A stretch of 64,000 bases of DNA from Nitrospiraceae bacterium (GTDB taxonomy: Bacteria; Nitrospirota; Nitrospiria; Nitrospirales; Nitrospiraceae): contig JBFWWG010000006.1 of the NCBI GenBank assembly GCA_050246315.1, positions 155,002 to 219,001 on the forward strand. Direction: 5' to 3'. Numbering within the stretch: the stretch's first letter is position 1; every line of letters starts with the position of its first letter. The notes below the pieces were generated by a model. The model saw nothing but the letters and a program-made list of their open reading frames with translations, did no database searches and was not told the DNA's origin. Below are positions 32,327-32,706 of this stretch, in pieces. Position numbers and translations under genes: made by a program.

Positions 32327-32706
32327 TGCGGGGTGGAGCAGCTTGGTAGCTCGTTGGGCTCATTCCGCAGGATCTCCATGAGCACGACCCCCATGGGTCA
32401 TGGTTCCGCCGCTTATCGGAACGCATGGCATCTGATCCTGCAAAGGGCTGCGCAGGGGGAAACCTCTGCGAGATCACCTGTCAAAGTCGGGGAAGCCGTT
32501 GGCGGGGTAACCCCGAGCCAAGCTCAAGTGGCCATACCGGTCCTTGAGAAGGTGTAGAGACTTGATGGCAGGCACCCTCCCGGTGGCGCGAGCCAGCCGA
32601 GGGTGAAGGGAAAGTCCAGACCACGAACTGGTCCAACCAGGCAGCGAAAGCTGTAGCGGTACGCATAACCCAAAGGTCGAAGGTTCAAATCCTTCCCCCG
32701 CAACCA
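32327..32706 (+). tRNA. Initiator tRNA-fMet(CAT), exons 32327-32360 and 32664-32706
   Basis: Joined exons give TGCGGGGTGGAGCAGCTTGGTAGCTCGTTGGGCT^CATAACCCAAAGGTCGAAGGTTCAAATCCTTCCCCCGCAACCA; three G-C pairs in the anticodon stem and an A11:U24 pair. Confidence 0.93.
32361..32663 (+). ncRNA. Group I self-splicing intron (IC3-like, 303 nt)
   Basis: Follows U33 and ends in G; core blocks GTCAAAGTCGGGGAAGCC, GGTAACCCCGAGCCAAGC, GAAGGTGTAGAGACTTGA and GGTGAAGGGAAAGTCCA resemble the Azoarcus tRNA intron; GAAA tetraloops in P2 and P9. Confidence 0.93.

Follow-up and report, generated by a model that had tools for sequence, protein, structure and literature searches.

A Nitrospiraceae bacterium carries a group I intron in its initiator tRNA gene. 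Does this intron control its own splicing, or does the elaborate RNA domain in its first loop have another origin? The question arises from the initial annotation of the stretch of DNA analysed here (64,000 nucleotides, referred to as the window). This annotation described a three-way-junction domain in loop L1 (32362–32444) containing two sequences, AUGGGUC and AUGAGC, either of which could vie with the canonical internal guide for the 5′ splice site. The fold of L1, perhaps together with a ligand, was proposed as a possible gate for maturation of the tRNA.

The Host Gene

The window belongs to G000, a 4.39 Mb assembly with an estimated completeness of 100%. With introns allowed, ARAGORN reports a tRNA-Met(CAU) gene with a 303-nt intron at G000:C6:187328–187707, corresponding to positions 32327–32706 of the window. 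Exon 1 (32327–32360, + strand) ends with GGGCU at the 5′ splice site and exon 2 (32664–32706, + strand) reads CAUAACCC...CCA. The intron interrupts the anticodon loop, and the three G-C pairs (GGG/CCC) in the anticodon stem formed by the exons are of the initiator type. Since group I introns follow a U and end with a G, we placed the 5′ splice site directly behind U32360 and the 3′ splice site directly behind G32663. Nucleotide 1 of the tRNA (32327) is a U opposite A72 (32702), which makes for a weak pair. The E. coli initiator tRNA contains a C-A mismatch at position 1/72.

A DNA search of the whole G000 assembly revealed no second copy of the initiator tRNA, only a fragment of its 3′ half, and the two remaining, uninterrupted CAU tRNAs of this genome are non-initiators by sequence. 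Therefore, the interrupted gene is the single initiator tRNA gene found in G000. ARAGORN in default mode and Rfam at the gathering threshold report only a tRNA-Val in the window. As a consequence, genomes of this kind would be annotated without an initiator tRNA. A search of sequencing runs for the words of a query stretch listed 20 rows with this stretch, of which 18 contain at least half of its words and 17 are recorded as RNA (12 studies).

The divergent upstream neighbor of the tRNA gene is an ORF for methionyl-tRNA formyltransferase (31276–32238, – strand; Pfam Formyl_trans_N, E = 5.3e-46, and Formyl_trans_C, E = 3.2e-26). This enzyme thus adjoins the gene of its own substrate. Approximately 3.5 kb downstream of the tRNA gene, a 39-nt copy of its 3′ half with 90% identity (36162–36200; G000:C6:191163–191201) looks like the att-site duplication of an element that integrated in the tRNA gene. 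The three ORFs between the gene and this copy (199, 258, and 276 aa) gave no match in Pfam. G003, a genome of the same genus, contains a similar tRNA-fMet fragment about 480 bp downstream of its own gene.

The Intron and Its Relatives

The 303-nt intron (32361–32663, + strand) matches the group I intron family RF00028. In a search by E-value, positions 32428–32636 align with the full length of the model (1–253) with 40.4 bits and E = 7.8e-9. This score is below the gathering score of 50, and a gathering-threshold scan of the window missed the intron. The annotated location of the domain, loop L1 of a group I intron that splits an initiator tRNA gene, is correct.

To place this intron in context we compared it with related loci. 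Of 60 relatives searched, 20 carry the intron, with a patchy spread (the unpublished genome G009 is counted only in these 60-relative tallies). A motif scan of named genomes produced at least 120 matches, 80 of which were taken for analysis. From a total of 101 loci, we removed 12 duplicates and a further 19 in which the fMet exon, the guide, or the 3′ exon pattern was missing; several of these 19 lie within other tRNA genes or are truncated at the end of a contig. The remaining 70 distinct fMet introns comprise 51 short and 19 long introns. The alignment contains 49 of the short introns and leaves out L040 and L089 (L1 of 295 and 159 nt) as well as the 19 long ones. Among the matches listed, Nitrospiraceae and Nitrospirales assemblies contain identical or near-identical loci, including L055, which is identical to the corresponding region of G002. 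Also among the matches listed, the fMet intron family (L039–L118) occurs in records named Acidobacteriota, Rhodothermales, Chloroflexia/Anaerolineae, and Methylomirabilota, as well as Armatimonadota, Elusimicrobia, Competibacteraceae, and several cyanobacteria. Further introns matched by the core motif, again among the matches listed, lie in genes to which ARAGORN assigns the isotypes tRNA-Thr, -Arg, -Asn, and -Leu. Some of these calls are probably misread intron boundaries.

The catalytic core is well preserved. The terminal G precedes CATAAC in all 69 aligned relatives and corresponds to G32663 in the window. An RNAalifold consensus of 69 sequences predicts 56 core pairs, 31 of which remain paired although both partners have changed. 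As a pseudoknot, P7 falls outside this prediction. The 5′ strand of P1 (32357–32361, + strand), consisting of the exon sequence GGCU and the first intron nucleotide C, pairs with the canonical internal guide GGGCU (32445–32449, + strand) with a pair probability of 0.87–0.99. This guide lies directly 5′ of P2, and its GGGC is invariant in all 49 aligned sequences. Similarly, none of the five core P1 pairs, which include the U-G pair at the splice site (U32360-G32446), varies among the 48 distinct sequences. P2 (32451–32470, + strand) is a hairpin with a GAAA tetraloop (32459–32462) in which eight of nine pairs show changes on both sides and 97.9% of the cells are paired. The Rfam alignment and the RNAalifold consensus place the ribozyme core P3–P9 at 32475–32663 (+ strand) with a second GAAA loop at 32646–32649. 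We infer that the intron still self-splices, given that no conserved core element is missing and that no other initiator tRNA gene was found.

A Conserved Helix Around a Variable Interior

All helices named in the initial annotation are present in the sequence. These are the closing helix GCAGGATC/GATCCTGC (32367–32374 and 32434–32441), CCATG/CATGG (32376–32380 and 32424–32428), GACCC/GGGTC (32386–32390 and 32395–32399), and GTTCCG/CGGAAC (32403–32408 and 32417–32422). The spaced pair that makes the closing helix occurs once in the window and in 0 of 100 shuffles. The annotated three-way junction has a free energy of –32.9 kcal/mol. The minimum-free-energy fold (–34.3 kcal/mol) has the same overall shape with a small shift in register, in that CCAUG pairs with CAUGG at 32392–32396. 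The segment 32362–32444 folds with a z-score of –3.57, and 0 of 200 shuffles are as stable. For the interior alone (32375–32433), the z-score is –1.77 and 11 of 200 shuffles fold as well, which indicates that most of the folding signal of the domain comes from the closing helix.

Comparison of the relatives leads to the same division. The annotation had called for covariation across orthologous introns; this signal is strong in the closing helix, but the interior does not align. In the helix formed by GCAGGAUC (32367–32374, + strand) and GAUCCUGC (32434–32441, + strand), eight of eight pairs show changes on both sides among 48 distinct relatives. The run of seven pairs (helix 3) is paired in 87.1% of the cells and the outer pair 18–151 (helix 2) in 79.2%. 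In introns large enough to contain an endonuclease gene, 5–8 of these eight positions pair when the best register is chosen. P1, its extension, and P2 together are paired in 88.7% of the cells compared to 29–47% in slid-partner controls, a comparison that leans in favor of the structure because P1 and the P1 extension were read from the window and the consensus. The covariation score of this structure was reached by 0 of 500 shuffles, a count that is not a probability because the sequences are related. Between the two arms, nothing aligns across the 49 short introns. Hence, sequence comparison marks the closing helix as a conserved extension of P1; the inner hairpins and the alternative guides lack such conservation. 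Consistent with this assignment, the minimum-free-energy fold of 32351–32474 (–53.8 kcal/mol) consists of the canonical P1, the P1 extension, two hairpins, and P2.

An Endonuclease Gene in the Relatives and a Remnant in the Window

What occupies this position in other introns? In 19 of the 70 distinct related introns, L1 measures 437–449 nt due to an insert of roughly 440 nt at the same spot, and full-length relatives of the intron measure 645–693 nt. In 15 of these 19, an uninterrupted reading frame begins directly behind the 5′ arm and extends through P2; the other four lack such a frame under the start criteria used. For the L016 ORF, the searches gave matches to PF11645 (E = 3.4e-53) and to the PDB structure 2OST (E = 2e-65), and for the L088 ORF a match to PF11645 with E = 5.1e-51. 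The 177-aa ORFs of the relatives cover positions 1–137 of this 138-position profile. Based on these matches, the L1 gene of the relatives is predicted to encode a PD-(D/E)XK homing endonuclease of the I-Ssp6803I family (PDDEXK_5, PF11645). Its 3′ codons coincide with the 3′ arm of the P1 extension (encoding L-I-L-Q), the guide, and P2 to P6, and its UAG stop codon lies in J6/7. In L016, L017, and L088, as in the window (32434–32557), the ORF ends with the UAG of a conserved GGUGUAGAGACU. ORF and ribozyme overlap by about 40 codons, and these bases are therefore under double constraint.

The annotation had stated that the domain contains no ORF long enough for a homing endonuclease. This is correct; what is present is a remnant ORF of 59 codons plus stop (32378–32557, + strand). 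This remnant stays in frame across a deletion and extends over the 3′ arm, the guide, and P2–P6 to the UAG in J6/7. Within L1, the interior (32375–32433, + strand) consists of a start region, a 17-nt junction (32386–32402), and a 3′ coding end. The remnant begins with ATGAGCAC, that is, a start codon and two further codons (M-S-T). The sequence after the junction, GTTCCGCCGCTTATCGGAACGCATGGCATCTGATCCTGC, encodes S-A-A-Y-R-N-A-W-H-L-I-L-Q. Residues 10–59 of the remnant are identical to residues 128–177 of the L088 ORF at 40 of 50 positions (80%, E = 4e-26), and 28 nt of the interior are 100% identical to the L088 endonuclease gene (E = 5e-12). The start region and the 3′ end of the interior also align with G003, L016, and L017. 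In Pfam, the 59-aa remnant matches no family, and the full PD-(D/E)XK domain is absent. The homology of the remnant also shows that the GTTCCG/CGGAAC hairpin corresponds to codons that were already there in intact genes. The reading frame is preserved because the 657-nt introns and the 303-nt intron differ by 354 nt, or about 118 codons.

Against the 19 endonuclease interiors, the best ungapped matches of the 17-nt junction were at chance level (8/11 and 11/14, which were equalled by 291 and 71 of 300 shuffled queries, respectively). A weak lead is that in seven of the 19 relatives, the best match falls at the same position (~236, codons R-R-V-M-V-R).

Taken together, these data favor one of the alternatives mentioned in the initial annotation, an endonuclease scar, as the remnant is 80% identical to the L088 C-terminus and occupies the same intron position. 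We consider it very probable that the L1 domain combines a conserved P1 extension with the in-frame deletion scar of an I-Ssp6803I-type homing endonuclease gene, and that it is passive and contains no switch. In full-length relatives, the endonuclease gene sits at the tip of the P1-extension helix with its putative ribosome-binding site in the 5′ arm. P1 itself forms between GGCU plus C (32357–32361) and GGGCU (32445–32449), followed by a small internal loop and the 8-bp extension, and this extension probably held the endonuclease gene outside the ribozyme. It may also have occluded the ribosome-binding site of this gene, since the 5′ arm contains AGGA (32369–32372) five nucleotides upstream of what is now the remnant start codon. 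In G000, about 354 nt of the gene were lost in frame; the start codon with two further codons, a junction of 17 nt, and the 3′ coding end are left. By chance, this residue folds into two small hairpins and so takes on the appearance of a three-way junction. Most likely the scar is passive, a peripheral extension with no part in the regulation of splicing.

Do the Alternative Guides Form a Switch?

The pairings on which the switch proposal was built are possible. AUGGGUC (32393–32399, + strand), which lies inside the deletion junction, can form 7 bp with 32357–32363, placing a G opposite the splice-site U, and AUGAGC (32378–32383) can form 6 bp with 32358–32363. As isolated duplexes, these helices are calculated at –8.2 and –8.5 kcal/mol, respectively, compared to –6.8 kcal/mol for the canonical guide. 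Furthermore, AUGGGUC is closer to the family-consensus guide AUGGGCU than the AAGGGCU of the window, and the gene is the only initiator tRNA gene found in the genome. On the other side, the window departs from the consensus guide at a single position (A instead of U at 32444), and in 14 of 48 relatives this nucleotide has no pairing partner.

In the context of the intron, the proposed pairings are costly. Folds forced to contain the AUGGGUC or the AUGAGC pairing reach –35.3 and –47.3 kcal/mol, which is 18.5 and 6.5 kcal/mol above the minimum of –53.8 kcal/mol, and an equilibrium thermodynamic model assigns both pairings a probability of approximately 0. An alternative P1 with AUGGGUC would also cross the conserved 8-bp helix. 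In addition, such guides arise easily by chance: 878 of 5000 shuffles of the interior contain an alternative guide of at least 7 bp, and 1724 of 5000 contain one of at least 6 bp. Applied to the 70 relatives, the same rule finds an alternative guide of at least 6 bp in 23 of them, at non-homologous places. AUGGGUC itself occurs only in G000 and G002 (= L055) and is absent from the six full-length relatives checked; outside this sublineage, both alternative guides are missing from the relatives. AUGAGC has a simpler explanation as the endonuclease start codon followed by a Ser codon, at a position where relatives encode S, N, T, or D. Finally, the region 32200–32850 contains no riboswitch or other Rfam family at E-values up to 1.

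These observations also speak to what an allosteric intron would require. We found no conserved aptamer, as the L1 interior does not align, and the thermodynamic model yields no mutually exclusive folds of near-equal energy. With guides at chance level that are neither conserved nor energetically affordable, and with no riboswitch match, we regard a conformational switch that gates maturation of tRNA-fMet as highly improbable. A related scenario is that AUGGGUC, created by the deletion, might act as a cryptic second guide or as a co-transcriptional folding trap. We give this possibility very little credence. If it were true, the fold adopted by the scar would affect the yield of the cell's sole initiator tRNA.

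A Captured Repeat or a Co-opted Domain?

The initial annotation also raised the possibility that a repeat or MITE had been captured in L1. Such a family does exist nearby: MITE-like repeats of about 124–142 nt with inverted termini CAGGATGTTSAAAAAG...CATCCTG lie at 25062–25203 and 35951–36074, and many more copies are found in the genome (a BLAST search with these two copies returned 80 rows on many contigs with E-values of 1e-5 or lower). The resemblance to the intron is limited to the ends of the insert, which share a hexamer with the CAGGATG...CATCCTG termini of this family. Searches with the family find no copy at the intron, and the insert is single-copy, with only 12–16-nt matches elsewhere in the 4.39 Mb (E of 0.2 or higher). 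Moreover, the shared hexamer is part of the helix that is conserved in introns of other phyla, and the genome shows no excess of CAGGAT...ATCCTG pairs (278 observed, approximately 322 expected). We can therefore set this explanation aside with near certainty.

Another alternative is that the part of the endonuclease gene between UCCGC and the 3′ arm was kept because it had been co-opted as a structural domain with a role at the RNA level, for example by stabilizing the P1 extension or by making a tertiary contact. Such a role would explain why deletions spare this segment: recognizable endonuclease fragments of differing extent are present in nine of the 51 short introns, and all nine keep the sequence adjoining the 3′ arm. 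In general, deletion derivatives nearly always retain the 3′ end of the gene. A second argument comes from the motif YCCGCU(G/A), which in endonuclease-bearing introns is the place of the R-S-A codons, and which recurs at a similar distance from the guide in the endonuclease-free L1 of one Nitrospirales genus and of Trichodesmium/Okeania-type cyanobacteria. We observed this motif (also as UCCGCYG) ~37–45 nt upstream of the guide in L019–L028, L043, L045, and similar loci, and in L047, L080, L094–L097, and L112, so that endonuclease-free L1 domains of two phyla contain it at a distance of about 40 nt. The shared motif could be either a very old scar or the product of a constraint at the RNA level. 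Against co-option, introns with the shortest L1 (44–52 nt; L086, L071, L014, L018, and L029) do without the motif, the Ser codon that coincides with it shows synonymous variation in introns with an endonuclease gene, and the inner hairpins are not conserved. The obvious partner for the motif, AGYGG near the 3′ end, already pairs locally with CCAC in the consensus, and for this reason we dropped a candidate long-range pair between CCGCU in L1 and AGCGG near the 3′ splice site. On balance, co-option appears unlikely, and the passive deletion scar remains our preferred reading.

Decay of the Endonuclease Gene

The genus of G000 presents several stages of this decay side by side. G001 has an uninterrupted tRNA-fMet gene, G003 has a 656-nt intron with a frameshifted endonuclease ORF, and G002 contains the same scar as G000. 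The two scarred loci differ at four of 379 nt, and all four differences fall within 32374–32389. In G002, these differences weaken the GACCC/GGGUC hairpin to such an extent that the annotated structure amounts to –24.5 kcal/mol, compared to –36.0 kcal/mol for the minimum-free-energy fold. This pattern fits relaxed constraint on the scar.

The various sizes of the nine scars among the 51 short introns show repeated, independent decay by internal deletion. We also noted independent deletion derivatives in other Nitrospirales and in Anaerolineaceae (L044, L054, L040, L089, L013, and L015) with L1 of 102–295 nt, each of which retains the start region, the 3′ end, or both.

Relation to Known Introns

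Riboswitch-controlled splicing is known from the c-di-GMP-II aptamer that is combined with a group I intron in Clostridioides difficile. Both cases turn on which strand pairs with the 5′ splice site of a group I intron, but the intron in the window differs in having no conserved aptamer, no Rfam riboswitch match, no conserved alternative pairings, and no near-isoenergetic fold. IC3-type bacterial tRNA introns, such as that in the tRNA-Ile gene of Azoarcus, have a compact core. The intron described here appears to share such a core, as well as GAAA tetraloops on P2 and P9. Unlike these introns, its family has a long P1 extension that hosts an endonuclease gene.

Homing endonuclease genes reportedly pass through a cycle of gain, decay, and loss, as Goddard and Burt are said to have proposed in 1999. 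The genus of G000 conforms to this scheme: the site is empty in G001, the gene is frameshifted in G003, and G000 and G002 retain deletion scars. A difference is that the gene ends here overlap with ribozyme helices (the arms of the P1 extension, the guide, and P2–P6). Because of this overlap, decay proceeds by internal deletion that leaves both ends in place.

The closest known counterpart is the tRNA-fMet intron of Synechocystis sp. PCC 6803, which measures 655 nt and encodes I-Ssp6803I, a PD-(D/E)XK endonuclease of 150 aa (PMC1995217). Both introns interrupt the same host gene at the same position of the anticodon loop, and relatives of the intron in the window carry the same endonuclease family (2OST, E = 2e-65). 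In contrast to the Synechocystis intron, the copy in the window has lost about 118 codons of the gene and resides in a member of the Nitrospiraceae rather than in a cyanobacterium. Furthermore, the ORFs of full-length relatives run to 177 aa instead of 150 aa and stop in J6/7.

What the Scar Means

The scar is an ordinary stage in the life cycle of mobile introns. In a 2012 review, the tRNA-fMet intron with an I-Ssp6803I-type endonuclease is described as mainly cyanobacterial (PMC3384342). Among the matches listed, the host range is wider than the cyanobacteria and also includes Nitrospirota, Acidobacteriota, Chloroflexota, Methylomirabilota, Armatimonadota, and others. Our literature search found no description of a tRNA-fMet group I intron in Nitrospira. 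The host phylum and the series within one genus are of modest interest, and an intron with an endonuclease scar is otherwise of a known kind. With the scar reading, an apparent regulatory RNA becomes a dated evolutionary relic, which spares bench effort aimed at a riboswitch, and one genus alone displays the empty site, the decaying gene, and the scars.
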